A DNA stretch of 57,011 nt from Escherichia phage vB_EcoM_fHy-Eco03: the sequence record MW602648.1. One strand, written 5' to 3'. Made by a program: the position numbers and the translations under genes. This document shows, piece after piece, positions 1-56,065 of this stretch. The notes beneath the pieces are model-generated. The model saw only the letters and a program-made list of their open reading frames with translations, did no database searches and had not been told where the DNA came from. Every line of letters starts with the position of its first letter. Position 1 is the stretch's first letter.

Positions 1-45
1 GGCGCAAAAAGAAAAAAAGCCGGATTGCTTTTGAAATTATAGACA

Positions 46-74
46 TTTACACAAGTCTTAAACTATGTTACAAT
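46..74 (+). promoter_or_regulatory. Sigma70-like promoter (TTTACA-N17-TGtTACAAT) in terminal repeat
   Basis: TTTACA at 46..51, 17-bp spacer, TACAAT at 69..74 preceded by TG at 66..67; about 40 bp upstream of the ATG at 114. Duplicate at 53358..53386. Confidence 0.5.
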
Positions 75-113
75 AGTTATTATTTACAATGTTAAGCACA
101 ATAGGAATTCATC

Positions 114-311
114 ATGAGCTATACTGACCAACAAATTGACACAGCAGCGGTTTTATTGGCACAAGAGGTAGATTTATTGCATTCTTTGATGAATGCTAGT
201 CATGATAGAGCTGAAACTATCAAGAATCAGATACGGGAAATTTGGTCTCAGCAGGTCAGCAACGGTGTATCTTTGGACTTTTTGGTGTGCCGCCTGAGAG
301 GTCAACTGTAA
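114..311 (+). CDS. Hypothetical protein (65 aa)
   Basis: ATG ORF with AGGAA 6 nt upstream; stop overlaps the next start (TAATG). Confidence 0.5.
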   Translation: MSYTDQQIDTAAVLLAQEVDLLHSLMNASHDRAETIKNQIREIWSQQVSNGVSLDFLVCRLRGQL

Positions 312-736
312 TGGTAAACATAAGAAGCAAGGGCCAGAACTTTGAGCGTAAAATGTCGAAAATGTTCAATGAATCGTTCGGGTTATCTACTGAGAGAAAT
401 CTCCAGCAATCTATAAACGGTGGAGATGATTTGATGGGAGTCCCGTTCTTCAGCGTTGAGCTCAAGAAGCACAACACCAAAGCTATCGGGACTTGGTGGA
501 AGCAATGTGCGGAATCAGCACGGCGTCAAAGCAAGATGCCAGTGCTAATCTATGAGATGCCACGGCAAAAGCCCACTGTCGTGATGAGAATTGAGGACGT
601 CAGTCAAGCTTTGGCTGAGGCACCACTGTTGCCAGCGGCTAGTAACAGGCTCTTTGTGGGCTTGGTGGAATTAACATGGGAACAATTTTGCCGGGTCTAC
701 AACTTTTACGTTGCGCCCGGCGTCGAGGTTGCTTAG
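311..736 (+). CDS. Putative PD-(D/E)xK-family nuclease (141 aa)
   Basis: ATG at 311 overlaps the upstream stop. Motif GGDDLMGVPFFSVELKK (D...ELK) resembles the PD-(D/E)xK nuclease signature. Track ORF 242..736 is the same frame with an upstream start. Confidence 0.4.
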   Translation: MVNIRSKGQNFERKMSKMFNESFGLSTERNLQQSINGGDDLMGVPFFSVELKKHNTKAIGTWWKQCAESARRQSKMPVLIYEMPRQKPTVVMRIEDVSQALAEAPLLPAASNRLFVGLVELTWEQFCRVYNFYVAPGVEVA

Positions 737-774
737 GTTGATGCTTGCATCAACACCAGTCAACTGTAGTTGAC
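737..774. terminator. Two adjacent hairpins between convergent genes
   Basis: GTTGATG-cttg-CATCAAC (737..754) and GTCAAC-tgta-GTTGAC (759..774), between the + gene ending at 736 and the - gene ending at 777; no clear U-run. Confidence 0.3.
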
Positions 775-776
775 AC

Positions 777-962
777 TTAGTCTTGTTTCAACTCATCGCA
801 GATAACGCGTTGATTTTGAGCTGGTACAAACCCGAGTTCGAGCAAAGTGTAAGGACTATCGGCGACGCATTGTTCAATGGTAGTCCATTCAGTTTTGGAT
901 TCAATAATTTTGTAACTACAATCATGAGTAGCCACACATGTTGCCAGGATTAAGCCAATCAC
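777..962 (-). CDS. Hypothetical protein (61 aa, GTG start)
   Basis: GTG start overlaps the upstream stop (GTGA); GAAGGAG Shine-Dalgarno upstream. Confidence 0.45.
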   Translation of the reverse strand: MIGLILATCVATHDCSYKIIESKTEWTTIEQCVADSPYTLLELGFVPAQNQRVICDELKQD

Positions 963-1138
963 AAGTAATCTCCTTCAACCAGAAACTCAAACAATTGGTT
1001 GTAAACGTTGCAACCCTTAGCGAAAGAGCTTTCAGCAGGTTTACCATCGCGGACGATCATCATATATTCACCGCCATGAATATCCACCCAGTATTGCATG
1101 CCACCCTTGACAGGGTTACGTTGTAAGAATTTAAACAT
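959..1138 (-). CDS. Hypothetical protein (59 aa), absent from the ORF track
   Basis: Hand-translated: MFKFLQRNPVKGG...VEGDYL. AAGGAG 7 nt upstream of the ATG; start overlaps the upstream stop (TAATG) and stop overlaps the downstream GTG. Confidence 0.5.
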   Translation of the reverse strand: MFKFLQRNPVKGGMQYWVDIHGGEYMMIVRDGKPAESSFAKGCNVYNQLFEFLVEGDYL

Positions 1139-1383
1139 TATTTGCTCCTTACTCCAAGTTTATTCAATAACCACACTGTCATGTCAACCCAGGTTAACGG
1201 TACAGTTTTCGGGGGTTGATAAGACCAGCACTTTCCAGCTCTTTCCGCAATTTCTTCGCGCCTTGCCGCTTGGCGTAATACTGCATCGTCAGAAGTGCCG
1301 GCAGAAAAAATATCGGCAATACCAGATAAATCGCCTCGATGAACACGTCCAGCAAGTTCATGCAGTTGCTCCTCAGAAAACAT
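1138..1383 (-). CDS. Hypothetical protein (81 aa)
   Basis: ATG start overlaps the stop of the upstream small ORF (ATGTTTTCTGA); part of the coupled leftward array. Confidence 0.5.
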   Translation of the reverse strand: MFSEEQLHELAGRVHRGDLSGIADIFSAGTSDDAVLRQAARREEIAERAGKCWSYQPPKTVPLTWVDMTVWLLNKLGVRSK

Positions 1384-1492
1384 AAGACAACACCATTAGA
1401 ATGATGATAAAGACAGCAACGGCTTTCGCCATGCCACGAGATTCATTATACACCGGATTTTCAGTGGTGTACTCAACAACATGCTTTTTCAT
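1373..1492 (-). CDS. Small hydrophobic protein (39 aa), absent from the ORF track
   Basis: Hand-translated: MKKHVVEYTTENPVYNESRGMAKAVAVFIIILMVLSYVF. GGAGG Shine-Dalgarno upstream; hydrophobic C-terminal half suggests a membrane segment. Confidence 0.45.
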   Translation of the reverse strand: MKKHVVEYTTENPVYNESRGMAKAVAVFIIILMVLSYVF

Positions 1493-1549
1493 ACAACCTC
1501 CAGTGTGAGAAATATCAATTGATGGCACCCGCAGATGCCATCTCAGATA

Positions 1550-2122
1550 TTACTCGCCTTCAGTCTCAGATTTTTCTTCAGTCTGAGGTGCTGCGGCTTC
1601 GTAGACCGTCTTACCATCAGTGATTTTACCGGATTTAACATCGTTACGGTAATAACTCATGTAAGACTGTACAACACGTTTTGATTTAACATCATCTTCA
1701 GCCATTTCACAGGCTTTCATGGCATCCGCAAGAGCGAGTTTTGAATCGTCTTTGTCTGCCAAGTTGTAATCTTTGAAGACCGCGTAACAAGTATCTTTGG
1801 TACTCGGTCCTGAAGATTTACGAGTACAACCAGTTGAACCGGAACGACTAGCTTTCTTCACTTCAACATGCTCAACCTCAAGACTTTCAAGTGCCTTATA
1901 CAAAGCAGGCACCAGAACATCCTTGCTGTCTTTGTGGGTGACAGATGCTTCATCATCAAGACTTTTAATCATCTTGACCAGTTGAGCATTTTGGAACTCT
2001 TTGAGAGCGCCTTTCTCAACAACGATGCAACTCATCATGCCTTCCATTGACAGACCATCTTTGATGCCTTCAACAGAAAAAGCGGAAGTTAAGTAAACAT
2101 ACTGAGTGATAGAATTTTCCAT
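1550..2122 (-). CDS. Hypothetical early protein (190 aa)
   Basis: Long ORF with AAGAGGA Shine-Dalgarno upstream; largest ORF in the terminal repeat. Confidence 0.6.
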   Translation of the reverse strand: MENSITQYVYLTSAFSVEGIKDGLSMEGMMSCIVVEKGALKEFQNAQLVKMIKSLDDEASVTHKDSKDVLVPALYKALESLEVEHVEVKKASRSGSTGCTRKSSGPSTKDTCYAVFKDYNLADKDDSKLALADAMKACEMAEDDVKSKRVVQSYMSYYRNDVKSGKITDGKTVYEAAAPQTEEKSETEGE

Positions 2123-2252
2123 GATTTTGTCCTCTTGTTTGTGGTTGACATCATTATAATGTCATGACTTCAGTTGTTTGTACATCTCAAATCACACATT
2201 TTTGTGCAATTTTTATCATGCGGTACGAATTATACCGCATTGTAAAAATTAC

Positions 2253-2453
2253 TCAAGAAATAATTACCTCAGTAACTACTACAGTGTTAGCAGTCACTAA
2301 TGTCAAAACTTTACCAGCTTTTGACCTCACAGCTTTCAACCGTAATTGTGACTGTGTGTAATTATTCCACTCTTCATCACTGAGCACGGTCCTGGTAACT
2401 TCAGGTCGTTCATCTTTGCCAAGCTTCACTACTGTAACTTTGATTAATGGCAT
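2253..2453 (-). CDS. Hypothetical protein (66 aa)
   Basis: ORF packed 4 nt after the upstream gene. Confidence 0.45.
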   Translation of the reverse strand: MPLIKVTVVKLGKDERPEVTRTVLSDEEWNNYTQSQLRLKAVRSKAGKVLTLVTANTVVVTEVIIS

Positions 2454-2456
2454 TGC

Positions 2457-2684
2457 TTAAACCTCAAATTTTGATTCGTCATATTCAGGGTCAGTCACAT
2501 CACGAGTGACACAATTTTGGAGTGCAGTCCAGTATTTTTGGACTTCAGCACCCTCCATGTATAGTGTCCAACCGTGATAGTAACCCTCGAAACTATTCCA
2601 GGTCCGTTCCCAAATCTTTCCGTCTTCGAGCTTATACTCAGTTGGTCTTGAGTCAAACTCACGGATAGTTGTGAATGTTACCAT
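2457..2684 (-). CDS. Hypothetical protein (75 aa)
   Basis: ORF in the coupled leftward array. Confidence 0.45.
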   Translation of the reverse strand: MVTFTTIREFDSRPTEYKLEDGKIWERTWNSFEGYYHGWTLYMEGAEVQKYWTALQNCVTRDVTDPEYDESKFEV

Positions 2685-2753
2685 GCGTTGTTACGCCTCT
2701 GTTGAATAATTTCAATCATGAACTATCACAACTTTGATAGTTCATTGTTGAAA

Positions 2754-2933
2754 CTATTGTAACTTTGTACTAATTTGAATTGTCAATCTAAACTCTTCAA
2801 GTAAGTTATCAATGTTGGATTTATCTTCCACAGCGGTAGAAATTTGATCACTTACAATTTGAGCATTTGACTCAAGAAGTTCAATCAAATGTGTCAATTC
2901 GTCTGCTGTCAATGTCAATTCTTTCATCATCAT
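2754..2933 (-). CDS. Hypothetical acidic protein (59 aa), absent from the ORF track
   Basis: Hand-translated: MMMKELTLTADELTHLIELLESNAQIV... Start overlaps the stop of the upstream ORF (ATGATGA). Confidence 0.4.
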   Translation of the reverse strand: MMMKELTLTADELTHLIELLESNAQIVSDQISTAVEDKSNIDNLLEEFRLTIQISTKLQ

Positions 2934-3100
2934 TCTCCTGAGTTAAATTGTGTGTCAATTTCAATAACTTTGGAACGTACATATTCCAGACAGTCATCAT
3001 AATCGTATGAAGTGTAACTCGGCATTGGAGAATCCAACCCTTCGTTAACATTCCATTCACCTTCATTAACATCAAACCAGATGATTAATTGAGTATGCAT
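2930..3100 (-). CDS. Hypothetical protein (56 aa), absent from the ORF track
   Basis: Hand-translated: MHTQLIIWFDVNEGEWNVNEGLDSPMPSYTSYDYDDCLEYVRSKVIEIDTQFNSGE. AGGAGT Shine-Dalgarno 8 nt upstream of the ATG. Confidence 0.45.
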   Translation of the reverse strand: MHTQLIIWFDVNEGEWNVNEGLDSPMPSYTSYDYDDCLEYVRSKVIEIDTQFNSGE

Positions 3101-3270
3101 TGTTATTACTCCTGTGTTAAGTTGTTTCAGGTGAGACTACTAAACTACTAATAGTCTCTGGATGAAATAACTTCACAGAGAAACAAAACATGTACCAAAT
3201 TGTTAAAGAGCAAAAGACACCATTGACCATCTACCAGATGTGTCTGTTGACTGGTTAAGTACTAACTACA

Positions 3271-3462
3271 CTAAGTAACTACATGCATCCTCCTGAACCG
3301 TTTCTGTGTCAAGTTGTTCAACACATTCAATAAATACATTATGTCAAAGTCCCTGTTGGTTGTACACAATAGAAGTGCAAGTTTGTGCAAGCTTTTAGAA
3401 ATGATAATCATCTGCGGTTGATAGTGATTCTCGTATGCAATTGATATAGTAACGCTCGTCAC
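3271..3462 (-). CDS. Hypothetical protein (GTG start, uncertain)
   Basis: Track ORF; its 5' end overlaps repeat element A, so the start is uncertain. Confidence 0.3.
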   Translation of the reverse strand: MTSVTISIAYENHYQPQMIIISKSLHKLALLLCTTNRDFDIMYLLNVLNNLTQKRFRRMHVVT

Positions 3463-3545
3463 TACTCAGTGTGAAACAGTCGACGGGGGTAAACGTCACA
3501 CACCGGTGCTATATTAGTTCCCCGGCGCAATTTTTATAAAAAATA
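3440..3545. repeat. Imperfect direct repeat element A (about 100 bp)
   Basis: TTGATATAGTAACGCTCGTCACTACTCAGTGTGAAACAGTCGACGGGGGTAAACGTCACACACCGGTGCTATATTAGTTCCCCGGCGCAATTTTTAT aligns with element B 173 bp downstream. Confidence 0.6.
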
Positions 3546-3612
3546 CAATTTCGTTTGTAATCGTAGACATACGGTATAGTTGCGGCCCGGTACCGTCACG
3601 GTGAGTTGTGAT

Positions 3613-3720
3613 TACGATTGTAATGATAACGCACGTTACTATTCACTCTGAAGGGGTGCCGGGGGGTAATTGTCACCTAGGGGTGTTAATTTAAGCCCCG
3701 GCAAATTTTTTATTTTTTTC
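3613..3720. repeat. Imperfect direct repeat element B, spanning the terminal-repeat boundary
   Basis: TTGTAATGATAACGCACGTTACTATTCACTCTGAAGGGGTGCCGGGGGGTAATTGTCACCTAGGGGTGTTAATTTAAGCCCCGGCAAATTTTTTAT; the repeat boundary (3699/3700) falls inside it at CCCC|GGC. Confidence 0.6.
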
Positions 3721-10393: not shown

Positions 10394-10422
10394 TTTACAT
10401 TCTGTTCCACTGGTTATATAAT
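10394..10422 (+). promoter_or_regulatory. Sigma70-like promoter (TTTACA-N17-TATAAT) upstream of scaffold and capsid genes
   Basis: TTTACA 10394..10399, 17-bp spacer, TATAAT 10417..10422; followed by a long GC-rich inverted repeat at 10435..10498. Confidence 0.45.
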
Positions 10423-11282: not shown

Positions 11283-11284
11283 TC

Positions 11285-12253
11285 ATGACTTTATACGTAT
11301 TTAACGAACAAGTACGGTCCACCGCCACCGAACTGGTTGACCAGGACGTCCAGAAATTCAACGAAGCTTCAGCCGGTACCCTTATCCTGGGTAACCAGTA
11401 TGTAATCGGCGATTACGTTGAGCAGGCAATGTGGCAGCTGGTTGACGGCATCGCACAGCGCCGTAACGCATACGGCGGTACTACTGCTGTTGACGCCCAG
11501 ACGCTCGGCCAGATTCTGGACCGCTCTGTTAAAATCGACGGCCGTGTTGGTCCTCTGAACATCACCGGCACCATGATGCGTCGTATCGGTGCAGGTGACA
11601 CTGAACCTGCAGCTGTTGTTGCTGCGCAGGCTTCTGCTGCAATGTTCCAGGACTACCTGAACACCACCGCTGCTTGTCTGGTAGCTGCTATCGGCGGTAA
11701 CGCTAAAGTGGTTAAAGACGTTTCCGGCGAAACTGGTGATGCTGCTAACATCAGCATGCAGGGTCTGAACAAAGCTAACGCCCTGATGGGTGACCGCTCT
11801 CAGCAGATTCGTGCGTACATCATGCACTCTATGGCGTTCCACTCACTGGTTGACCAGGCGATTAACAACGCCGAGCGTCTGTTCTCCATCGGTGACCTGA
11901 CCGTGTACCGCGACTTCCTGGGTCGTCGTTACGTCGTCTCCGATATTCCTGCACTTGTGGGCGAAGAAGGCGCATACAAAACTCTGGGTCTGACTCCGTC
12001 AGCTGCTATCGTTCAGGTCGGCGGTCTGTACGATATGGTTACCTCCGAAAAAACCGGTGGTGAAAACATCCTGCGTCAGATGCAGGGTGAATACGACTTC
12101 AACGTGTCTCTGAAAGGTTACAGCTGGGTCGGTCAGAAAACTGGTCAGTCTCCGACTGATGCTGAGCTGGCTGCTAATGCTTCCTGGCAGAAAGTTGCTA
12201 CCTCTGACAAAGACACCGCGGGCGTTATGCTGCTGGCTAAGTCTGTAATCTAA
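11285..12253 (+). CDS. Major capsid protein
   Basis: 322-aa ORF after the scaffold gene; codon usage typical of a highly expressed gene; followed by a strong terminator. Confidence 0.65.
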   Translation: MTLYVFNEQVRSTATELVDQDVQKFNEASAGTLILGNQYVIGDYVEQAMWQLVDGIAQRRNAYGGTTAVDAQTLGQILDRSVKIDGRVGPLNITGTMMRRIGAGDTEPAAVVAAQASAAMFQDYLNTTAACLVAAIGGNAKVVKDVSGETGDAANISMQGLNKANALMGDRSQQIRAYIMHSMAFHSLVDQAINNAERLFSIGDLTVYRDFLGRRYVVSDIPALVGEEGAYKTLGLTPSAAIVQVGGLYDMVTSEKTGGENILRQMQGEYDFNVSLKGYSWVGQKTGQSPTDAELAANASWQKVATSDKDTAGVMLLAKSVI

Positions 12254-12272
12254 CGGTTACACTATCCAAACA

Positions 12273-12304
12273 AAAGCTGCATCTGACGAGATGCAGCTTT
12301 TTTA
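12273..12304 (+). terminator. Rho-independent terminator after the major capsid gene
   Basis: Perfect 11-bp stem AAAGCTGCATC / GATGCAGCTTT with a 6-nt loop, followed by a T-run. Confidence 0.8.
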
Positions 12305-12325
12305 TACAAAAAGAAAGGGTGCATT

Positions 12326-12694
12326 ATGGGTGGCGCAAGAATCAAACCAGAACCTTCACACATTCGCGGAATATGTATTACAGAAGGTTGTATTAACCCT
12401 CAAGTACGCAGGGATAAAAATAATTATAGAGCACATTGTGCTTCTTGCCACAACAAACGTCATAACATAGGTCCATCGCGATTTAAATATAGAAAGTTTA
12501 AAAAAGATGTTTGTGAAGAATGCGGATTTGTACCAGTACATCCATGTCAGTTAGATGTTGACCACGTAGATGGTAACCATAAAAACGATGACCCTTCTAA
12601 TTTGCGTACTCTTTGCGCTAACTGCCATAGACTCAAAACATACCTTAACAGGGACTGTGTCTCTAACTCTTCAGGTTTACTTGTACAAAATTAG
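12326..12694 (+). CDS. HNH endonuclease
   Basis: Cys-rich N-terminus (CASCHNKRH) and HNH core DVDHVDGNHKNDDPSNLRTLCANCH; free-standing gene inside the structural operon. Confidence 0.7.
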   Translation: MGGARIKPEPSHIRGICITEGCINPQVRRDKNNYRAHCASCHNKRHNIGPSRFKYRKFKKDVCEECGFVPVHPCQLDVDHVDGNHKNDDPSNLRTLCANCHRLKTYLNRDCVSNSSGLLVQN

Positions 12695-12729
12695 AGTGTA
12701 TAATCGGACTAAACAGCTGGAGACAGACT

Positions 12730-13224
12730 ATGGCTTTTGAACTCATTGTTGAAGACGGTAGCATTGTGCCAGGTGCCAACAGCTACGCTAGTAAAGAGCA
12801 GATTGATGACTTCCTGGAAAACGAAGGCATTGTACCACCCACAAACGTTTATTACATGGCTTCCAAAGCTGCTTACCGACTCGACGGTAAATACTCATGG
12901 CTCGGTCGCAAGGTAAGCAAGATTCAGCCTATGCAATGGCCTCGTACTGGACTTGGTCCTTGCAATATCGATATTGCGATGAATGTTATTCCGCCGCAGC
13001 TAATCCGAGCTCAACTGTACTTCCTTGCTGATATGCTTAGCAACGAAACAGAAGAAGGTGTGCGCGGTGACCAGGCTTTGCGTCGTAAGAAAGTTGGTAA
13101 CCTGGAGATTGAATTCTTCGATTCAAAATCTGGTGTAACTGGTAGCTCTAGCGACTGGATTACAGATGCGCGAGAGCTGGTTGCTGATTTAATCGGCGCA
13201 ATGTTCAAAACTCGTCGGGTGTAG
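12730..13224 (+). CDS. Putative head-tail adaptor protein
   Basis: 164-aa ORF after the capsid gene. Called by position and size. Confidence 0.4.
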   Translation: MAFELIVEDGSIVPGANSYASKEQIDDFLENEGIVPPTNVYYMASKAAYRLDGKYSWLGRKVSKIQPMQWPRTGLGPCNIDIAMNVIPPQLIRAQLYFLADMLSNETEEGVRGDQALRRKKVGNLEIEFFDSKSGVTGSSSDWITDARELVADLIGAMFKTRRV

Positions 13225-13225
13225 T

Positions 13226-13693: not shown

Positions 13694-13694
13694 C

Positions 13695-18198: not shown

Positions 18199-18630
18199 AT
18201 GGCAGAAGAAGCAAAGCTGAATGGTACAGCTATTGAAGTACCATATCCCGTACCAAAGGACCCGGTTCCTGACTACCGTCAAGAGTCGCCTGTTATTCAG
18301 GACGGTCCGGCACGTGGTAAAATCAATGTGGACTACCAGGGCAAATACGTTCCTGACGTTATCCATGTTGACGGCGTTACTGTTACGCCAAAAAGCAAAA
18401 CTCTGACCGTTGGTGATACCTACCAAATTGAGTCTGTCGTCACACCTGACGATGCTACTGATAAGTCAGTGACTTATAGCTCAAGCAACGACAATGTGAC
18501 TGTTGACTCAAAAGGTAAGTGCACCGCTGCTAAAGCTGGTACCGCTACCGTTACAGTTAAAACCAACGACGGCGGCAAAACTGCAACTGTTGCGTTCACT
18601 GTTAACGAGCCTGCAGATTCAGTTTTTTAA
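18199..18630 (+). CDS. Ig-like (Big_2-type) domain protein
   Basis: One copy of the Ig-like repeat VTPDDATDKSVTYSSSNDNVTVDSKGK...TATVTVKTNDGG; GGAG Shine-Dalgarno 6 nt before the ATG at 18199. Confidence 0.5.
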   Translation: MAEEAKLNGTAIEVPYPVPKDPVPDYRQESPVIQDGPARGKINVDYQGKYVPDVIHVDGVTVTPKSKTLTVGDTYQIESVVTPDDATDKSVTYSSSNDNVTVDSKGKCTAAKAGTATVTVKTNDGGKTATVAFTVNEPADSVF

Positions 18631-18660
18631 TACTCTAGGGCTTCGGCCCCATTTCGTTAG

Positions 18661-20787
18661 GTGCTAACAATGGGCTTACCTTTAAAAGAAATAGTTAACG
18701 TCCAGATTGGCGTTAGCAGCGGTGGTCCAGGCATACCTGAAGATGTACCAGTCAGAGGTATTGGCCTGTCCAAATACTTTTGGGAAATGCGTGTCAATGC
18801 AACTGACAGGCTATACCCAATGTTCAACCCAACAAACTCGCTAGACCGCAAAGTTTACTGGACCGAAGATTCAGACGGTAAAATAGTTACTGTTGATGAT
18901 GACGGTAGGGTGACAGGTCGTGGAATCGGTCAGGCTTACGTTACGTGTGTTACGGAAGACGGTGCTTATCGCGCTACCTGTTTGTATAATATACTGCGCG
19001 CTCTTATACTTGTTACGAGCATTGAATTAGATGCGTATGCAAAGACTATTGAAGAGGGCCAGTCATTTCAGCTTAACGCTACGGTGTTACCTGAGAATGC
19101 AGATGATAAAACTCTTCGCTGGGCTTCAGACAATCCTGACGTGGCTACTGTAAGTAACTCAGGTTTGGTAATAGCGCTTAAAGCAGGTACAGCTAATATA
19201 ACTGCTACCAACAACGTTGTTTCAAATCCCTGTATTGTAACTGTTACACCGCCAGTTATTCACGTCACAGGCATTACGCTTGACGAGAATTCAATAAACC
19301 ATGTTAAAGGCGATACCAAGCAGCTTGAAGCATACGTAGTACCCACAAACGCGACTAACAAAGCTGTTAGCTGGTCTTCCAGCGATACCAGCATTGCTAC
19401 GGTAGATGATACCGGGTTGGTAACATGTGTTGATGTAGGTACTGCCACAATTACCGCTAAGACGGTAGATGGCGGCTATGACGCTACATGCTCAGTTAAA
19501 GTTATACCGGCTATCGTTCGTGTAACAGGTGTTACACTCGACCAGGATGGTCCTCTCGACCTTGAGATTAATGACACGCAACAACTGTCTGCTACTGTTA
19601 CGCCTGACGACGCTACCGACAAGACTGTTGTATGGGACACAACTGACGCCAATGTTCTTATTGTGTCTGCTGAAGGCCTTGTCACCTGTGTTGGTGAAGG
19701 TATAGCAAGCATTACCGTTACTACCAATGACGGCGGCTTCACAGACAGTGTTGAGATTAAAGTTACTAATCCTAACATTGCTGTAACGGGTGTTGCATGG
19801 GCTACTAACTCTCCGACTAAAGTAAGTATCGGCCATCAGGTGCAAACCAAAATTGTTATAACACCCGACAACGCAACCAATAAAAAAGTAAGTTACAATA
19901 GCTCAAACCCAGACGCTGTTACTGTTGACACTAACGGAGTTATATATGGTCAATCTCCTGGAACTTCGACTATTACAGTTACAACAGACGACGGTGGACT
20001 TGAGGCTTCATTTGTAGCGGCTTGCACGGAGGTGGCTGTTATTACACCAGATGGTCTTGGTGGTATTCCAATTGGTGGTACTCAGCAGTTCACTTATACT
20101 GTTAGCCCGTCTGACGCTGAGCTGACTAATATTCGTTATGAGTCTGCTGACCCAGCTATTGCAACTGTTGATTCGTCTGGCGTTGTAACTGGTGTTGCTA
20201 GCGGCGGATGTAACATCTGGATTTACGCAACTAGTAATGGCGCTGACATTAGTGCAGCTACTTGGGCACAAATTTCTGAGAAGGTACAGGTATACCCTCA
20301 GTATGCCGAATGGCTTGTGGGTAACACCAAACAGCTTGATGTTGAGATTTATCCGTCTGACTCTAAGAGCGTTACCGTTACTTATGAATCGTCAGATGAC
20401 ACTATCATTAGTGTAGATGCAAATGGCTTGATGACTGCTAAGTCTGAAGGTTCAGCAACTATTACTGCTAACGTTGTGATGAACGGTGTTGCTGCTTCTG
20501 GTACAACATCTCCTTACGTGTCTGAGCTTTCTGTTACTACTGATTCACTGCCTGCACTTATTGTTGGCAACACGCAGCAACTGGTTGTAACTGTTAGACC
20601 TGAATACGCTAAGACAGACCCAGACTATAACATTCAGTATACAACTACAGACGATACTGTCGCTACTGTAAGTAATACCGGTGTTATTACTGGCGTTGGT
20701 AGTGGTGGATGTCGTATCGGCGCCACAGTAACTGTGAGAAATGCTACATCGTCGGACAGCTCTTATCAGTCCGTCAATGCGGCATAA
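18661..20787 (+). CDS. Multi-Ig-like (Big_2-type) domain protein, fiber or decoration candidate
   Basis: 708 aa with about 8 tandem divergent copies of the motif V.P..ATDK.V.W.SS.......VD..G.VT....GTATIT..T.DGG. Confidence 0.6.
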   Translation: MLTMGLPLKEIVNVQIGVSSGGPGIPEDVPVRGIGLSKYFWEMRVNATDRLYPMFNPTNSLDRKVYWTEDSDGKIVTVDDDGRVTGRGIGQAYVTCVTEDGAYRATCLYNILRALILVTSIELDAYAKTIEEGQSFQLNATVLPENADDKTLRWASDNPDVATVSNSGLVIALKAGTANITATNNVVSNPCIVTVTPPVIHVTGITLDENSINHVKGDTKQLEAYVVPTNATNKAVSWSSSDTSIATVDDTGLVTCVDVGTATITAKTVDGGYDATCSVKVIPAIVRVTGVTLDQDGPLDLEINDTQQLSATVTPDDATDKTVVWDTTDANVLIVSAEGLVTCVGEGIASITVTTNDGGFTDSVEIKVTNPNIAVTGVAWATNSPTKVSIGHQVQTKIVITPDNATNKKVSYNSSNPDAVTVDTNGVIYGQSPGTSTITVTTDDGGLEASFVAACTEVAVITPDGLGGIPIGGTQQFTYTVSPSDAELTNIRYESADPAIATVDSSGVVTGVASGGCNIWIYATSNGADISAATWAQISEKVQVYPQYAEWLVGNTKQLDVEIYPSDSKSVTVTYESSDDTIISVDANGLMTAKSEGSATITANVVMNGVAASGTTSPYVSELSVTTDSLPALIVGNTQQLVVTVRPEYAKTDPDYNIQYTTTDDTVATVSNTGVITGVGSGGCRIGATVTVRNATSSDSSYQSVNAA

Positions 20788-42004: not shown

Positions 42005-42877
42005 TTATAAAGAGAAGGCTACTGCTGGTCCATCATCCTTTCGTGGGTATACATCAGCCATTGTGTAATCCCCACAAGCTGCCATCTGAGTTGCGATGGT
42101 TTCGAGATTGTGTTCATGCTTGGTGCAGTACCACACCTTGCCGCTTACAGGTTTACTGTAGGCACAGGTACGGCAATTCCTGTCTGGTGCCGCTCCCTTG
42201 TTGCAGATGTGTGTAAACTCACACATACGGCATTCCCACCACAGCGGTGATTCACTGATGCGCGGCATATCCAAACCAGACTCTGCTTCAATAACACTCT
42301 TAGCCCGGTCAAGTATAATGTCTGCAGACAGATTATCACGGTGTACAATCTCTATGTACAGCTCATCCGTGTTCTTATTGATTGCCATGTACACACACTT
42401 ATTCAGATTGAGTAAGTGCATATATACTTGCATCTGGTCATAGTGCACGGGCTTACACTCTTTTACCTTATGCTTAGCAAACTCCTTAAACGATTTGTCT
42501 CCATGAGTTTTAAACTCCAACAGGAACCATTCATCGTCTATCTTCGCCACACCATCGCATGACCCTGAGAAGATACCGTTAAACGCTGACACTCGCCATT
42601 GTTTATTGGTCTTAGGGTTTACAGGATAAAGCTCCTGCGCAATTGGTTTAAGCCATTCGAGGAACCGTACTTCTTCCCGTGAACCTCGGTCAAACAATCG
42701 AAGCTGCTTGGCATTAAACTTTTCTTTGTACGACCAGTGCAGCACATGCCACAAATAACGATAGCACTTATTACCAATTTGTGACGCACCCAGGTGACCA
42801 CGTCGCTCCTCCTTCTCATGGGCTTCAACAATCTTAACATCAATTCGCTTCTTCAGCGTTTCGGCCGTAATACTCAT
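42005..42877 (-). CDS. Cas4/RecB-like PD-(D/E)xK exonuclease with Cys cluster
   Basis: One N-terminal Cys (KCYRYLWH) plus C-terminal CRMCEFTHIC...CRTC, the Cas4-type arrangement. Start placed at the internal ATG (42877) with AGGGG Shine-Dalgarno; the track ORF extends to 42925. Confidence 0.45.
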   Translation of the reverse strand: MSITAETLKKRIDVKIVEAHEKEERRGHLGASQIGNKCYRYLWHVLHWSYKEKFNAKQLRLFDRGSREEVRFLEWLKPIAQELYPVNPKTNKQWRVSAFNGIFSGSCDGVAKIDDEWFLLEFKTHGDKSFKEFAKHKVKECKPVHYDQMQVYMHLLNLNKCVYMAINKNTDELYIEIVHRDNLSADIILDRAKSVIEAESGLDMPRISESPLWWECRMCEFTHICNKGAAPDRNCRTCAYSKPVSGKVWYCTKHEHNLETIATQMAACGDYTMADVYPRKDDGPAVAFSL

Positions 42878-43388
42878 TATAGCCCCTGTTAGCAAACTGA
42901 CCATGCATTTGAATACGCATTTCATCCAGCCAGTTTATTAGTTTAGTCCTGTTGTCTTCTGTCGCCAACATTGTCTTGGTCTTGCGTTTGCCGTCCTTAG
43001 TAATGCTGGCAACATAATATGGTTTACCTTTTAGTGTTACTCTTGATAACCCTTTTACACCAGATGTGTTATTAAGATATATATTTGTGTTGCAACGGTT
43101 ATCGCTACGTGTTGCTGCTCTGACATATTTATTGTCCTCTCGCGTTAGACTCGGATGGTCAACTTCCGGTGGTTCATACCCAAACTGCATGAAGTAGATT
43201 ACACGATGTACAAGGCACTGTCTCCCTTTAATGCGCACTGTTTTGTAACCGTCTTTACGTAAAGAACCGGCTTCCGTGCCGGCTTTAACTTTATTATTGG
43301 CCCTGTTAATCTTGTTCATTAACCGGCCATCTTCAACATAGAACAGCTCTGACAACTCAGCTTGTGTAGCCGGAATCGGCACAAACAT
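42840..43388 (-). CDS. HNH homing endonuclease
   Basis: GYKTVRIKGRQCLVHRVIY...EVDH...NRCNT pattern typical of phage HNH homing endonucleases; overlaps the neighbouring genes. Confidence 0.55.
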   Translation of the reverse strand: MFVPIPATQAELSELFYVEDGRLMNKINRANNKVKAGTEAGSLRKDGYKTVRIKGRQCLVHRVIYFMQFGYEPPEVDHPSLTREDNKYVRAATRSDNRCNTNIYLNNTSGVKGLSRVTLKGKPYYVASITKDGKRKTKTMLATEDNRTKLINWLDEMRIQMHGQFANRGYNEYYGRNAEEAN

Positions 43389-43806
43389 ATTCTACTCCTG
43401 AATCAGTTAAAAAAGCCTTTGCCTCGAGCATAGATGCATGCCATTTTGAGGCAGAATAAGCGTCTAGAGAGCTAGTCACTAGCCTTATAATAGGTATATT
43501 CGCCTTAAGCATTTTAGAGCACTCTAGGCATGGCGGATATGTGACATAAACGGTCACACCTTCTGTCAGTTGTGCCTTTAAATTAGCCATACAATTAACT
43601 TCTGCATGGATTGTATACACATTCTTCAGTTCCGCTGGGATAACCGACAAGCCATCCAGCTGACGAGGGAATCCATTGTAGCCTGTTGACAGTATGCGAT
43701 TGTCTTGTGATACTATAACACATCCAACTTTACGCTTATCATCTTTGGACCAGCTACCTATAAGGTGAGCCAGCTCCATAAATCGGCTATCCCAAAGGTT
43801 CTGCAT
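43357..43806 (-). CDS. dCMP deaminase
   Basis: Zinc-binding motifs HAE (IHAEVNCMA) and PCxxC (PPCLECSKM); AGGAG Shine-Dalgarno before the ATG at 43806. Confidence 0.8.
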   Translation of the reverse strand: MQNLWDSRFMELAHLIGSWSKDDKRKVGCVIVSQDNRILSTGYNGFPRQLDGLSVIPAELKNVYTIHAEVNCMANLKAQLTEGVTVYVTYPPCLECSKMLKANIPIIRLVTSSLDAYSASKWHASMLEAKAFLTDSGVEYVCADSGYTS

Positions 43807-43824
43807 GTTAAAGCTCCTGCGCAC

Positions 43825-43847
43825 AAAAAGGGTAGCCGAAGCTACCC
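43825..43847 (-). terminator. Intrinsic terminator hairpin (minus strand)
   Basis: GGGTAGC-cgaa-GCTACCC followed on the minus strand by a U-run (plus-strand AAAAA at 43825..43829). Confidence 0.6.
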
Positions 43848-43865
43848 TTTTATTAATCTACGGAA

Positions 43866-50443: not shown

Positions 50444-52952
50444 TATTCTCGGTCTGAAATACTTTAAGCCTGAAGGTATTCCACAAGTCTTCAAAGATAT
50501 GAGACGTTGGGGTATTTTTGAGCTGACGTATGAAGACGATAAGCTAGAGGTTCAGGCCAAACCTAAAAAGCCTGCAAGAGCCCCATCCGGGAAATCATAC
50601 AGCACATCCAATGAAGCAGACTGGTTAACCTTTGACGAAGCACTTAATCGTTGTATTCGTAACCGTGAAGCTAAATTGAAAGCTGTGCAGGGTCATATCA
50701 CTTATATCCCGGCTTTGATTGTTCCCCGTAACTGGTACTTTGTCGACCTGGACAACCACGAAGACAACCCAGATATAGAGGCAACCCACAAAGCGATTAT
50801 TGAAGGGACTCGCGGCGCTTACGTAGAAACATCCGTATCTGGTAGAGGCCAGCATATTGCTGTACCTATGCCCTGGACTGTTGCAACGTCCAAAGAGAAA
50901 GATGAGCAGCTGGATATTAAAATCCAGAAGCCTGATATGTTCCTGGTAATGACAGGCAACGTAATCAGCAAGGAATACGCTGACCCGCTTCCAATGAAGC
51001 AATGGCATCAAACTATAGAACAATTCTTTATTGATGCTAACGTACCTGATATTGACGTGTCCTTTGAACAGGACCCAGACCGTGGTGCTGAACACGATAA
51101 AGAGATTTACGAATCGCTGGCAGATAACACTCGCTGGGCGCTTGAGCATTACCTCAACGAGGAAGCTCCTCCGGGTGTTGGTGTAAGTAACGACGGCTCA
51201 GAACGCTTAAGCCGTATATTAAAGGACTTGCTTCGCGCATCCCGCAATTACGAAGTTACTCACCGCATCTTTATGGCGAGTAAAGCTGCAGCATATGAAT
51301 GTCGACGTGCTAACAGAATGTCTTTATCAATCGATAAGTATCACGATTGGTTCGGGCGTGTTGGTAAGACGGTTCTTAAAGAACTCCAACGGGATGGCCT
51401 GTTTGTCAAAACTGAGTTTAAGCTTGACATTAATAAAGAGCTGATGAAACACAGTGGAGTTTCACTCGCTGAAAATGTTAGCTTCAAACCTAAGGATGAG
51501 ATTTCGTCCTCTGACTACTTTGTAAATACTGCACCGTCAGGCTTCAAGCGTTTGATTATGGAGATTCAAAACAATATTGCTCCAGCCAACCGTGTTAACG
51601 ATTATGCCATTGGCATTGCTCTTAACATTCTCAGTAACTGTGCTGGACGAAAGTATGTGTGCCCTGTAGATGGTCACGCTAACTTCCTGGCGACTAATAT
51701 TATTCTTGTGGGTACGTCCTCCATTGGTAAGTCCAATTATACTGAATTGTTCCCTCAGATTCAGGCAAATGTAGCCGAGAATTCGCCATTGAGTTTTGCA
51801 CGTATACCAAGAGAGCAGACGTTTGCAACTCGCCAGTTTGCTGAGCTTATGTCAAACCCGAGCTATCATTCAGTCCAGTTGTTCTATCCCGAGTTTGGGC
51901 AAGCACTCGGTTCTGGTTTACGCATGAATCCTAATAACCCGGATAACTTCCAACGTGCTATTATGGATGCTTCAACCAAGCGTAAAGTTGGCGGTATTCT
52001 TACAGGGATTAAGCGAGCTAATGCTGAGAATGATGTTAAGACTGTTAAAGAACCGTGCTATTCTATTTTAGGTGATTCAACTCTCGAATACATTCTTAAG
52101 TACACACATAAAGATGACTTCTCATCAGGCTTTTTGCCCCGCTTCCTGTTCATTCCGAACTACGAGCGAGCGGACTTCCAGAAACCTGAGAAAGTGGGCA
52201 GACGCAAAGAGATTACACGCGTTAAGTTCAGCGAAGAGCTAGTCAGCTGGCTTGAGGCAATTGCGTTTACCAGTATTATCCCGGGCAACGGTATGCTTAA
52301 GCCTGACCCTATTCCTGTATACGATGAATCAGACGACGATGACATCCTGTATGAGTATCAGTGCAAGATTATTGATATGCGCCGTTACTATAGGGATAAC
52401 GAGATAGCTTCTGCATTCATTGGCCGTATGGGTGAATATGTTTTCAACATTGCTGCATTGATTGGCTTACTCGATAACTGGGACAATCCTGTAATGACAC
52501 GTAACAACATCGAATGGGCTTACCGTTATGTATTACGGTGTATCACTTCGTGGGTTAATGAAGTAAGTAATGTTGTAGCTCCGCCTACTACCGATGCTGA
52601 AGTAGTTGACGGTATCCTCAAAGTCTACAGGGACCTTTTGGCACTGTATAACGACAAAGGATGGGAAGGCGTCAAACAAGGCTATCCTGAGAAGGTTACC
52701 CGCAATTTCAGAGAAGAACATCTCAAGATGAACGGGTTGCCAATCTATGCTATTCGCCAATCATTAAGCTGGTTTAAGAACAATTACGGCTTCAATATTG
52801 TTGCGAATAATAAGGCAATTGACGGCATGCTGCAGGACATGATTGAACAGGATTATCTTGCAATTCAAATGCTAACTGCCCACAAGGGGAAGCCTGGCAA
52901 GGTCTTTTGTCTTACCGAACGAGGATATGAGATAGCGAAGAAGCTTAAGTAA
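50421..52952 (+). CDS. Primase-polymerase (prim-pol) fused to a P-loop helicase-like domain
   Basis: N-terminal prim-pol motifs YFVDLDNHED (DxD) and SVSGRGQHIAV (sGxGxH); C-terminal Walker A ILVGTSSIGKS; 843 aa. Confidence 0.55.
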   Translation: MSMTPQNNILGLKYFKPEGIPQVFKDMRRWGIFELTYEDDKLEVQAKPKKPARAPSGKSYSTSNEADWLTFDEALNRCIRNREAKLKAVQGHITYIPALIVPRNWYFVDLDNHEDNPDIEATHKAIIEGTRGAYVETSVSGRGQHIAVPMPWTVATSKEKDEQLDIKIQKPDMFLVMTGNVISKEYADPLPMKQWHQTIEQFFIDANVPDIDVSFEQDPDRGAEHDKEIYESLADNTRWALEHYLNEEAPPGVGVSNDGSERLSRILKDLLRASRNYEVTHRIFMASKAAAYECRRANRMSLSIDKYHDWFGRVGKTVLKELQRDGLFVKTEFKLDINKELMKHSGVSLAENVSFKPKDEISSSDYFVNTAPSGFKRLIMEIQNNIAPANRVNDYAIGIALNILSNCAGRKYVCPVDGHANFLATNIILVGTSSIGKSNYTELFPQIQANVAENSPLSFARIPREQTFATRQFAELMSNPSYHSVQLFYPEFGQALGSGLRMNPNNPDNFQRAIMDASTKRKVGGILTGIKRANAENDVKTVKEPCYSILGDSTLEYILKYTHKDDFSSGFLPRFLFIPNYERADFQKPEKVGRRKEITRVKFSEELVSWLEAIAFTSIIPGNGMLKPDPIPVYDESDDDDILYEYQCKIIDMRRYYRDNEIASAFIGRMGEYVFNIAALIGLLDNWDNPVMTRNNIEWAYRYVLRCITSWVNEVSNVVAPPTTDAEVVDGILKVYRDLLALYNDKGWEGVKQGYPEKVTRNFREEHLKMNGLPIYAIRQSLSWFKNNYGFNIVANNKAIDGMLQDMIEQDYLAIQMLTAHKGKPGKVFCLTERGYEIAKKLK

Positions 52953-52965
52953 AGAGTAAGTAAAT

Positions 52966-53009
52966 CAAGGACTTATGCTGTAGACGTTATAGCTAAGTCC
53001 TTGTTTTTT
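52966..53009 (+). terminator. Rho-independent terminator after the primase gene
   Basis: 10-bp stem CAAGGACTTA (52966..52975) / TAAGTCCTTG (52994..53003) followed by TTTTTT. Confidence 0.7.
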
Positions 53010-53185
53010 ATACTGTTTCCCAAAAACTGATTAACGTTTATACTATAGTCTTTATATAAACACTAAACTACTGATTTTATTACTCTTTTTTACCCGTATA
53101 AATATAAGCTCTCCTTTAAATAAATAAGGGGGGAAAAAGAAAATACGGTCCCGGAAAAAGAGAGTTATTATTATTATTTATTTAT

Positions 53186-53203
53186 TATATATATATATAT
53201 ATT
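53186..53203. repeat. (TA)n dinucleotide microsatellite in an AT-rich low-complexity spacer
   Basis: TATATATATATATATATT within the AT-rich noncoding region 53040..53312, preceded by ATTATTATTATTTATTTATT. Confidence 0.8.
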
Positions 53204-53357
53204 TATATAAAAGATAGAGAGTATTTAAAACAAGTACTTAGGCATCCTTATTCATGTAATCCGGTTATATGTATTATATAATTATCAGATTGGATAAGAA
53301 AAAGTTATTGCCGGCGCAAAAAGAAAAAAAGCCGGATTGCTTTTGAAATTATAGACA

Positions 53358-53386
53358 TTTACACAAGTCTTAAACTATGTTACAAT
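53358..53386 (+). promoter_or_regulatory. Copy of the terminal-repeat promoter (TTTACA-N17-TGtTACAAT)
   Basis: Duplicate of 46..74. Confidence 0.5.
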
Positions 53387-53425
53387 AGTTATTATTTACA
53401 ATGTTAAGCACAATAGGAATTCATC

Positions 53426-53623
53426 ATGAGCTATACTGACCAACAAATTGACACAGCAGCGGTTTTATTGGCACAAGAGGTAGATTTATTGCATTCTTTG
53501 ATGAATGCTAGTCATGATAGAGCTGAAACTATCAAGAATCAGATACGGGAAATTTGGTCTCAGCAGGTCAGCAACGGTGTATCTTTGGACTTTTTGGTGT
53601 GCCGCCTGAGAGGTCAACTGTAA
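53426..53623 (+). CDS. Hypothetical protein (duplicate of 114..311)
   Basis: Identical copy in the right terminal repeat. Confidence 0.5.
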   Translation: MSYTDQQIDTAAVLLAQEVDLLHSLMNASHDRAETIKNQIREIWSQQVSNGVSLDFLVCRLRGQL

Positions 53624-54048
53624 TGGTAAACATAAGAAGCAAGGGCCAGAACTTTGAGCGTAAAATGTCGAAAATGTTCAATGAATCGTTCGGGTTATCT
53701 ACTGAGAGAAATCTCCAGCAATCTATAAACGGTGGAGATGATTTGATGGGAGTCCCGTTCTTCAGCGTTGAGCTCAAGAAGCACAACACCAAAGCTATCG
53801 GGACTTGGTGGAAGCAATGTGCGGAATCAGCACGGCGTCAAAGCAAGATGCCAGTGCTAATCTATGAGATGCCACGGCAAAAGCCCACTGTCGTGATGAG
53901 AATTGAGGACGTCAGTCAAGCTTTGGCTGAGGCACCACTGTTGCCAGCGGCTAGTAACAGGCTCTTTGTGGGCTTGGTGGAATTAACATGGGAACAATTT
54001 TGCCGGGTCTACAACTTTTACGTTGCGCCCGGCGTCGAGGTTGCTTAG
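53623..54048 (+). CDS. Putative PD-(D/E)xK-family nuclease (duplicate of 311..736)
   Basis: Identical copy in the right terminal repeat. Confidence 0.4.
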   Translation: MVNIRSKGQNFERKMSKMFNESFGLSTERNLQQSINGGDDLMGVPFFSVELKKHNTKAIGTWWKQCAESARRQSKMPVLIYEMPRQKPTVVMRIEDVSQALAEAPLLPAASNRLFVGLVELTWEQFCRVYNFYVAPGVEVA

Positions 54049-54088
54049 GTTGATGCTTGCATCAACACCAGTCAACTGTAGTTGACAC

Positions 54089-54274
54089 TTAGTCTTGTTT
54101 CAACTCATCGCAGATAACGCGTTGATTTTGAGCTGGTACAAACCCGAGTTCGAGCAAAGTGTAAGGACTATCGGCGACGCATTGTTCAATGGTAGTCCAT
54201 TCAGTTTTGGATTCAATAATTTTGTAACTACAATCATGAGTAGCCACACATGTTGCCAGGATTAAGCCAATCAC
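54089..54274 (-). CDS. Hypothetical protein (duplicate of 777..962)
   Basis: Identical copy in the right terminal repeat. Confidence 0.45.
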   Translation of the reverse strand: MIGLILATCVATHDCSYKIIESKTEWTTIEQCVADSPYTLLELGFVPAQNQRVICDELKQD

Positions 54275-54450
54275 AAGTAATCTCCTTCAACCAGAAACTC
54301 AAACAATTGGTTGTAAACGTTGCAACCCTTAGCGAAAGAGCTTTCAGCAGGTTTACCATCGCGGACGATCATCATATATTCACCGCCATGAATATCCACC
54401 CAGTATTGCATGCCACCCTTGACAGGGTTACGTTGTAAGAATTTAAACAT
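54271..54450 (-). CDS. Hypothetical protein (duplicate of 959..1138)
   Basis: Identical copy in the right terminal repeat. Confidence 0.5.
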   Translation of the reverse strand: MFKFLQRNPVKGGMQYWVDIHGGEYMMIVRDGKPAESSFAKGCNVYNQLFEFLVEGDYL

Positions 54451-54695
54451 TATTTGCTCCTTACTCCAAGTTTATTCAATAACCACACTGTCATGTCAAC
54501 CCAGGTTAACGGTACAGTTTTCGGGGGTTGATAAGACCAGCACTTTCCAGCTCTTTCCGCAATTTCTTCGCGCCTTGCCGCTTGGCGTAATACTGCATCG
54601 TCAGAAGTGCCGGCAGAAAAAATATCGGCAATACCAGATAAATCGCCTCGATGAACACGTCCAGCAAGTTCATGCAGTTGCTCCTCAGAAAACAT
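54450..54695 (-). CDS. Hypothetical protein (duplicate of 1138..1383)
   Basis: Identical copy in the right terminal repeat. Confidence 0.5.
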   Translation of the reverse strand: MFSEEQLHELAGRVHRGDLSGIADIFSAGTSDDAVLRQAARREEIAERAGKCWSYQPPKTVPLTWVDMTVWLLNKLGVRSK

Positions 54696-54804
54696 AAGAC
54701 AACACCATTAGAATGATGATAAAGACAGCAACGGCTTTCGCCATGCCACGAGATTCATTATACACCGGATTTTCAGTGGTGTACTCAACAACATGCTTTT
54801 TCAT
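54685..54804 (-). CDS. Small hydrophobic protein (duplicate of 1373..1492)
   Basis: Identical copy in the right terminal repeat. Confidence 0.45.
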   Translation of the reverse strand: MKKHVVEYTTENPVYNESRGMAKAVAVFIIILMVLSYVF

Positions 54805-54861
54805 ACAACCTCCAGTGTGAGAAATATCAATTGATGGCACCCGCAGATGCCATCTCAGATA

Positions 54862-55434
54862 TTACTCGCCTTCAGTCTCAGATTTTTCTTCAGTCTGAGG
54901 TGCTGCGGCTTCGTAGACCGTCTTACCATCAGTGATTTTACCGGATTTAACATCGTTACGGTAATAACTCATGTAAGACTGTACAACACGTTTTGATTTA
55001 ACATCATCTTCAGCCATTTCACAGGCTTTCATGGCATCCGCAAGAGCGAGTTTTGAATCGTCTTTGTCTGCCAAGTTGTAATCTTTGAAGACCGCGTAAC
55101 AAGTATCTTTGGTACTCGGTCCTGAAGATTTACGAGTACAACCAGTTGAACCGGAACGACTAGCTTTCTTCACTTCAACATGCTCAACCTCAAGACTTTC
55201 AAGTGCCTTATACAAAGCAGGCACCAGAACATCCTTGCTGTCTTTGTGGGTGACAGATGCTTCATCATCAAGACTTTTAATCATCTTGACCAGTTGAGCA
55301 TTTTGGAACTCTTTGAGAGCGCCTTTCTCAACAACGATGCAACTCATCATGCCTTCCATTGACAGACCATCTTTGATGCCTTCAACAGAAAAAGCGGAAG
55401 TTAAGTAAACATACTGAGTGATAGAATTTTCCAT
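54862..55434 (-). CDS. Hypothetical early protein (duplicate of 1550..2122)
   Basis: Identical copy in the right terminal repeat. Confidence 0.6.
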   Translation of the reverse strand: MENSITQYVYLTSAFSVEGIKDGLSMEGMMSCIVVEKGALKEFQNAQLVKMIKSLDDEASVTHKDSKDVLVPALYKALESLEVEHVEVKKASRSGSTGCTRKSSGPSTKDTCYAVFKDYNLADKDDSKLALADAMKACEMAEDDVKSKRVVQSYMSYYRNDVKSGKITDGKTVYEAAAPQTEEKSETEGE

Positions 55435-55564
55435 GATTTTGTCCTCTTGTTTGTGGTTGACATCATTATAATGTCATGACTTCAGTTGTTTGTACATCTC
55501 AAATCACACATTTTTGTGCAATTTTTATCATGCGGTACGAATTATACCGCATTGTAAAAATTAC

Positions 55565-55765: not shown

Positions 55766-55768
55766 TGC

Positions 55769-55996: not shown

Positions 55997-56065
55997 GCGT
56001 TGTTACGCCTCTGTTGAATAATTTCAATCATGAACTATCACAACTTTGATAGTTCATTGTTGAAA

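Follow-up and report, generated by a model that had tools for sequence, protein, structure and literature searches.

Genes and signals at the capsid-adaptor junction

The window, i.e. the whole 57,011-nucleotide stretch of Escherichia phage vB_EcoM_fHy-Eco03 (MW602648.1) that was analyzed, carries on its plus strand a small HNH endonuclease gene, g23 (12326..12694; 122 aa with an ATG start), which is recognized by Pfam, by a family alignment and in the published annotation. It is lodged between the major capsid gene on the left (11285..12253, plus strand; a Gp13-like protein of the Pfam family PF20036, E=1.3e-105) and the gene for the head-tail adaptor Ad1 on the right (12730..13224, plus strand; PF20557, E=2.6e-35, with an Ad1 annotation in relatives), in agreement with the original prediction of an HNH gene between these two structural genes. 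g23 is an ORF of its own in the intergenic region and neither neighboring gene is interrupted by it. A scan of positions 11000-14000 against Rfam recovered no match, indicating that there is no group I intron around g23. The GC content over g23 is 36.5-38.5%, as against 50-57% in the capsid gene, and its composition is thus foreign to its surroundings.

The phage belongs to the genus Rosemountvirus, with a genome of 57,011 bp and direct terminal repeats of 3,699 bp as defined by PhageTerm, and its DNA is refractory to the majority of restriction enzymes, which hints at a base modification of unknown kind (PMC8145870). The repeats are present in the window as an exact 3,699-bp direct repeat (1..3699 and 53313..57011).

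The capsid gene is followed by a terminator hairpin (12272..12303, plus strand) with a 13-bp stem, a GACG loop and a U6 tail; its sequence is AAAAGCUGCAUCU-GACG-AGAUGCAGCUUUU at 12272..12301, after which come two further U residues. The strong terminator that had been predicted ahead of the HNH gene is borne out by a folding energy of -19.5 kcal/mol (z=-6.8 relative to shuffles) and by covariation: among 8 distinct alleles from relatives compensatory changes are seen at 8 of the 12 stem pairs with 99% of the cells paired, and none of 500 shuffles did as well. Together, the energy and the covariation identify the hairpin at 12272..12301 as a real terminator-type structure. Position 12273, previously taken as the start of the HNH feature, is the start of this hairpin, and the gene itself begins only at 12326. 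The loop sequence UGACGA (12284..12289) is unchanged across all 8 alleles while the stem pairs covary; such an invariant loop on a freely varying stem may point to a sequence-specific role beyond termination, for instance in protein binding or processing. The hexamer TGACGA occurs 43 times in the window as against about 25 expected, a count for a lone 6-mer to which no reading is attached. The stem in the window differs from those of the nearest HNH-less relatives by compensatory changes; stems vary among the HNH-less alleles as well, and a link between the type of stem and the presence of the HNH gene is therefore drawn from two independent stem types only.

Downstream of the terminator lies a segment of 372 nt that is missing from HNH-less relatives (12304..12675, plus strand, as delimited by alignment with the empty sites of phages KM, SOI901 and BP63; see below) and which comprises a 22-nt leader and most of the HNH ORF. 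The leader has a ribosome-binding site (AAAGGG, 12314-12319) placed 6 nt from the ATG and is too short to hold a promoter of its own, implying that transcripts of g23 would all have to originate further upstream and pass the capsid terminator by read-through. The likely source of such transcripts is a sigma-70-like promoter upstream of the scaffold and capsid genes (TTTACA-17-TATAAT, 10394..10422, plus strand; 11 of 12 matches in a consensus scan). A second promoter, that of the head-tail adaptor operon (TTTACT-17-TATAAT, 12676..12704, plus strand; 10 of 12 matches in the scan), has a counterpart annotated at the corresponding position of the BP63 RefSeq entry. It covers the last 19 nt of g23, whose stop codon (TAG, 12692-12694) falls within the promoter spacer.

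Sequence profile analysis of the g23 protein recovered a significant hit to the Pfam HNH family PF01844 in residues 63-105 (E=1.8e-8, 34.8 bits; the curated gathering cut-off is 21.4 bits), along with hits to several PHROG families labeled as HNH endonucleases. In an alignment of g23 with 52 homologs the catalytic residues D77, D79, H80, N92 and H101 are invariant across all 53 members, as are the zinc-binding cysteines C63, C66, C97 and C100. The HNH motif thus occupies the C-terminal part of the protein (C63, C66, D77, D79, H80, N92, C97, C100 and H101), and the profile match, the catalytic and metal-binding residues and the CxxC...CxxC zinc-binding signature place it in the HNH (beta-beta-alpha-Me) superfamily. 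A confident AlphaFold2 model made from the family alignment (pLDDT 83) has the corresponding core of two strands and a helix (residues 76-80, 93-97 and 98-108). The N-terminal half contains a second cluster of conserved cysteines (C17, C22, C38 and C41), with the family pattern KPEP..RG.C...C......YR..C..CH, that defines a putative small zinc finger. Beyond this, a Foldseek search of the model against the PDB returned only generic HNH cores with E-values of at least 0.018 (the Gme nicking enzyme, Cap5 and McrA), sequence searches of the PDB with the single protein and the family profile returned only marginal matches (DotN, McrA and ZRANB3; best E-values 0.001-0.08), and a search of NCBIfam returned only sub-threshold matches (ZorE and IscB). 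By its conserved residues and the substitution rates presented below, g23 is an intact gene for an HNH nuclease, and one on which purifying selection acts strongly.

The genome paper of fHy-Eco03 lists g23 in its Supplementary Table S2 with the same boundaries (12326..12694, 122 aa) as an HNH protein whose best HHpred hit is the HNH endonuclease of Geobacillus virus E2 (GVE2; 5H0M), and reports that Gp23 was not particle-associated in the mass spectrometry of virions (PMC8145870). In the same work g23 lowered the yield of transformants in one cloning screen (ratio 0.27), and g23 and g64, a second HNH gene considered below, showed 'some toxicity' in the cloning screens with moderate growth inhibition at most upon induction (PMC8145870). 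As both genes had already been annotated there as HNH endonucleases (PMC8145870), what is added here is the comparison bearing on their mobility.

Empty sites and allele exchange among relatives

Within the phage collection, Salmonella phage vB_SE1_KM (hereinafter KM) comes closest to fHy-Eco03; its capsid and adaptor proteins are respectively 99.7% and 100% identical to those encoded in the window. In KM the two genes are separated by a spacer of just 104 nt that is devoid of an HNH gene and reads ...AAAAGGGCAAGCTGACGAGCTTGCCCTTTTTA/TTTACTTGTACAAAATTAGAGTGTATAAT..., the slash marking the point of insertion. The 372-nt insert of the window sits exactly between the terminator T-tract with the A that follows it and the -35 element TTTAC, and the break points of the blastn alignment are 12290 and 12676 in the window, corresponding to 6274 and 6288 in KM. 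Within about 250 nt on each side the two phages differ only by base 12264, five compensated stem positions, the length of the T-tract and the insert itself. The sequence of the adaptor promoter is the same in the empty site and is left intact by the insertion; since window and KM agree from TTTAC onward, the last five full codons of g23 and its stop codon are resident promoter DNA. The insertion is hence precise, with a terminator and a promoter that both still look functional. Other stretches of the window that align poorly or not at all with KM at the nucleotide level are 18256..18637 and 19694..20616, in a structural/tail region between the KM 'tail protein' and 'major tail protein' genes, and 50457..53324 in the primase region.

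The left junction (12304..12331, which includes the start codon of g23) bears a weak resemblance to the adaptor promoter (TACAAAA...GTGCATTATGG versus TACAAAATTAGAGTGTATAATCG), and the same is true of positions about 1031..1060 of the ZCSE2 locus. In these two cases 61-178 of 2000 shuffles score equally, and the junction in BEC1-17 has no such likeness. A similarity that is marginally above shuffles suggests, as a lead only, that the adaptor promoter may have been duplicated at insertion.

Empty spacers of 104-105 nt are also present in KE25, the Erwinia phage SOI901, BP63, JEP7, KE24, SE4 and relatives from IMG/VR. In KM and KE25/26 the flanking genes are essentially identical to those of fHy-Eco03 and both of its HNH genes are absent, so that conservation of these genes in all relatives, which would have spoken against mobility, is clearly not what is observed. 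By tblastn only 5 of the 61 related records proved to have a full-length copy of g23 at this site with at least 60% identity, namely two of ZCSE2 and one each of SA173, Kpn_R1 and BEC1-17, with proteins 68% identical to that of the window; a further carrier, 99.5% identical in nucleotide sequence, is present in a sequencing-run assembly. A search of IMG/VR with the capsid protein yielded 5 loci, and the sampling of alleles is mostly from GenBank phage records. The comparison of gene order with HNH-less relatives, proposed along with the original prediction, thereby supports mobility, and the sporadic presence of g23 at a precise empty site is what characterizes a free-standing homing endonuclease gene.

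The closest counterparts of g23, ZCSE2 gp02 (Loughboroughvirus) and the copies in SA173, Kpn_R1 and BEC1-17, share with it the family (68% aa identity), the insertion point, the orientation and an ORF end inside the promoter. They differ from it in being only 65-68% identical in nucleotide sequence, in being preceded by another terminator stem and in having their stop codon in the -10 hexamer, whereas that of g23 is in the spacer. The SA173 copy is C-terminally shorter (119 aa versus 124 aa). The ZCSE2 paper merely lists its HNH gene, and the copies of this group are annotated by similarity (PMC7232530); the literature search found no published study on HNH genes in Rosemountvirus.

Comparisons within this group reveal that the HNH gene has a history distinct from its surroundings. 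Between ZCSE2 and Kpn_R1 there are only 4 mismatches in the 978-nt capsid gene as against 30 in 280 nt inside the HNH gene, and SA173 presents a similar picture. The interior of the gene (1074..1353 of the ZCSE2 locus) is about 11% diverged from Kpn_R1 and SA173, almost entirely by synonymous changes, between flanks that are about 99.5% identical, and the corresponding dS is 0.41-0.64 in the HNH gene, at a dN/dS of 0.04-0.07, versus 0.017-0.08 in the flanks. Among HNH alleles dN/dS is 0.04-0.08 (about 0.05) with dS of up to 1.15. This combination of a high dS and a low dN/dS between otherwise near-identical phages indicates that diverged functional alleles are being swapped in.

A case of such an exchange is provided by BEC1-17, which over 2.4 kb from the capsid to the neck gene sides with BP63 at nearly all sites that are informative between BP63 and ZCSE2. 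The exception is one contiguous ZCSE2-like patch, which takes in the terminator stem, the HNH gene and roughly the initial 20 nt of the promoter spacer. Accordingly, the capsid gene of BEC1-17 is 97.8% identical to that of BP63, and its HNH gene is 82% identical to that of ZCSE2 at the nucleotide level. In a different slot, Erwinia phage RF1 (PV942687) has an unannotated HNH gene of the same family (3001..3341 of the locus; 68.8% identical) directly after another terminator and upstream of a dCMP deaminase gene, where the record annotates an ORF on the opposite strand instead. The equivalent slot in the window (about 43825..43865) is an empty terminator-to-gene junction. The BEC1-17 mosaic, the divergence of the HNH alleles and the RF1 slot are together the pattern of lateral movement with co-conversion, and the cassette has clearly been transferred between phage lineages, taking along some tens of flanking bases. 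Flanks this short could equally be left by ordinary homologous recombination when phages co-infect a cell, with no help from a nuclease.

A second HNH gene and the wider family of g23

The window encodes a second free-standing HNH protein, g64 (42840..43388, minus strand; 182 aa), which belongs to the phrog_99 'HNH endonuclease' family (E=6.6e-37) and is of the I-HmuI/HNH_3-like type; its best HHpred hit in the published annotation (43388..42840) is I-HmuI, 1U3E (PMC8145870). It is situated between two metabolic genes, overlapping a dCMP deaminase gene at its 3' end and a Cas4-like exonuclease gene at its 5' end, just as had been predicted. g64 resembles I-HmuI in its family and differs from it in being free-standing rather than intron-encoded; its identity to phage records does not exceed 41%. 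The two HNH proteins of fHy-Eco03 are unrelated and g23 is not of the I-HmuI type.

At the g64 locus the alignments with related records split or end at the gene in all 25 matches listed of 54 related records, so that each of these 25 lacks g64, and coverage of the g64 query stays below 80% in all 54. The best tblastn identity is 41%, and the top phage matches, from JenK1-like and T5-like phages, carry a homing endonuclease annotation. Between KM and the window the adjacent dCMP deaminase (43357..43824) is strongly diverged and the exonuclease gene is nearly identical, so that the deaminase together with g64 (42840..43865, minus strand) looks like a replaced module. These observations are consistent with g64 being a second, independent insertion accompanied by a local recombination scar. 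The prediction that these are free-standing homing-type HNH genes marking spots of recombination hence gains support from the empty site in KM and KE25/26, the patch in BEC1-17 and the diverged deaminase beside g64.

More distant members of the g23 family occur in T3-like, Kuravirus and Stenotrophomonas phages, where they are part of replication or early regions. The contexts of the family were surveyed in 80 IMG/VR loci encoding relatives of g23. Major head proteins, belonging to six PHROG families, make up 9 of the 57 non-redundant large upstream neighbors, and the others are primases, ribonucleotide reductase, exonucleases and, for one large group of loci, an HslV-like peptidase. The members that follow a capsid gene come from loci L017, L019, L022, L031, L044, L054, L059 and L076, and those in L018 and L029 are one gene further off. 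A strong hairpin separates the capsid or capsid-like gene from the HNH gene in five of the capsid-following contexts, and the order capsid-HNH also recurs in an unrelated phage of the Mu-portal type. The family thus has an excess of positions just behind a capsid gene, as in the case of segD of phage T4. The 82 downstream neighbors include just one large terminase and three Ad1 adaptors, and no terminase is present among the upstream families listed; the family is therefore not terminase-linked.

Two broader generalizations were considered and rejected. A terminator directly upstream is not universal in the family, being present in the Rosemountvirus group, RF1 and the five capsid contexts and absent in the T3-like, Kuravirus and Stenotrophomonas phages. 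An identity of the family with T7 gene 3.8, suggested by a member from a T3-like Klebsiella phage in that slot, fails as the two have only the HNH motif in common.

Probable homing and alternative roles of g23

That phages harbor homing endonucleases as free-standing genes in the gaps between other genes is textbook knowledge. The above-described observations make it probable that g23 is another such gene, i.e. a free-standing HNH endonuclease of the homing type, carried as a selfish and laterally mobile cassette in a neutral gap between two transcription units. In T4 the free-standing endonucleases occupy intergenic gaps between conserved genes; segD lies between capsid gene 23 and gene 24 with terminators on its flanks, and mobE relies on upstream promoters and is followed at its 3' end by a promoter that precedes the adjacent gene (PMC2988022). 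g23 is reminiscent of the Mob family, and of MobE in particular, in being a separate intergenic ORF between essential genes with a sporadic distribution and, presumably, in its dependence on an upstream promoter and read-through. It is similarly reminiscent of segD in its terminator-associated slot right after the major capsid gene. It differs from the Mob enzymes in being much smaller and in having an N-terminal Cys-rich finger in place of their DNA-binding regions, and a sequence relationship with them is detectable in the HNH motif only. SegD is a GIY-YIG enzyme encoded antisense, whereas g23 is an HNH enzyme co-oriented with its neighbors.

By this analogy, transcripts that start at the 10394..10422 promoter and read through the capsid terminator would result in a low and late expression of g23. 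In a mixed infection Gp23 might then nick or cut the genome of an HNH-less partner close to the empty site ...CCCTTTTTA/TTTACTTG..., and recombinational repair off the HNH-carrying genome would copy in the cassette along with short co-converted flanks. The carrier genome could be protected because its site is split by the insert, because its terminator stem differs, or both; given how few differences there are between window and KM near the site, self-protection would have to come from the split site or the stem variant. Whatever in this scheme goes beyond the comparative facts is modeled on the T4 free-standing endonucleases (PMC2988022). Counting against the homing reading is the length of the protein, as 122 aa is small for a homing enzyme specific for a long site and is the size of non-specific packaging-type HNH proteins.

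An alternative is that g23 is a nuclease of competition or exclusion without self-mobility, which damages co-infecting HNH-less relatives or other competing DNA, its patchy distribution being due to ordinary recombination and selection. The low dN/dS of about 0.05 implies that the protein is useful to something, and both the swapping of divergent alleles between near-identical phages and the mild toxicity of g23 cloned in E. coli (PMC8145870) could be understood in such terms. Precedents exist in the marker exclusion documented for T4 free-standing endonucleases (PMC2988022) and for HNH enzymes of lactococcal phages (PMC12724721). However, a precise cassette-like insertion with short donor-type flanks is a prediction of homing, and exclusion and homing would in any case be two outcomes of one cleavage-and-repair event that are inseparable in sequence data. 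Exclusion as the sole function is accordingly considered unlikely.

Some HNH proteins serve in packaging: HK97 gp74 and the GVE2 HNH protein work with the terminase. The original prediction had allowed for such a terminase cofactor, which would aid in cutting concatemeric DNA during head filling and thereby account for the position of g23 among the head genes. Like HK97 gp74 and the GVE2 protein (PDB 5H0M), g23 is small and has a zinc-bound HNH core; the published best HHpred hit is to that very GVE2 structure (PMC8145870), the gene is in the head module, and its relatives stand directly behind major capsid genes in 9 of the 57 contexts. Yet a plain sequence search finds no close PDB entry, and g23 is missing from KM, KE25/26 and most of the 61 relatives despite near-identical terminase, portal and capsid genes, making it dispensable in those phages. 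It also stands four genes away from the terminase (the order being terminase large subunit, portal, scaffold, capsid and HNH), and the single terminase among the 82 downstream neighbors, with none in the upstream families listed, extends this separation to the family. Moreover, the phage has 3,699-bp direct terminal repeats instead of cos ends according to PhageTerm, and Gp23 went undetected in virions (PMC8145870). The features typical of an HK97 gp74-type protein, namely terminase adjacency, conservation in relatives and cos ends, are thus all lacking, and the proposal of a packaging cofactor is very hard to sustain.

It is just as improbable that g23 is an inactive relic, left over from an old insertion, in decay, simply carried along and on its way out of most lineages, for although it is rare among relatives, sits without a promoter of its own behind a strong terminator and has a C-terminally shortened copy in SA173, its catalytic and zinc-binding residues are all intact, its dN/dS stays at 0.04-0.08 over a dS of up to 1.15, the exact restoration of the empty site by deletion in many lineages is implausible, and BEC1-17 displays a gain by transfer.

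A bolder proposal is that this family of small zinc-finger HNH proteins is specialized for the gap after major-capsid-gene terminators, where it would recognize the terminator/promoter boundary through its structure or T-tract context instead of a sequence specific to one gene, or has been co-opted to tune late transcription from capsid to neck genes. In the phages compared here, the cassette moves together with a terminator-stem variant of its own and terminates within the following promoter. The proposal is regarded as a long shot; if true, a homing endonuclease with such boundary recognition or tuning of late transcription would select its targets in an unusual way.

Thus, in conclusion g23 appears to be an ordinary free-standing HNH gene of the homing type in a genome that was already annotated. 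The value of the comparison lies in the natural pair of filled and empty sites provided by fHy-Eco03 and KM or KE25, which, with flanks that are about 98% identical, would make an easy test system for homing in a group of phages under development for therapy. The comparison also furnishes a narrow prediction for the target, which should involve the terminator stem, base 12264 or the insertion point. More generally, the capsid-adaptor and deaminase-exonuclease junctions are hot spots of recombination, and caution would be in order at both when these phages are compared or engineered.
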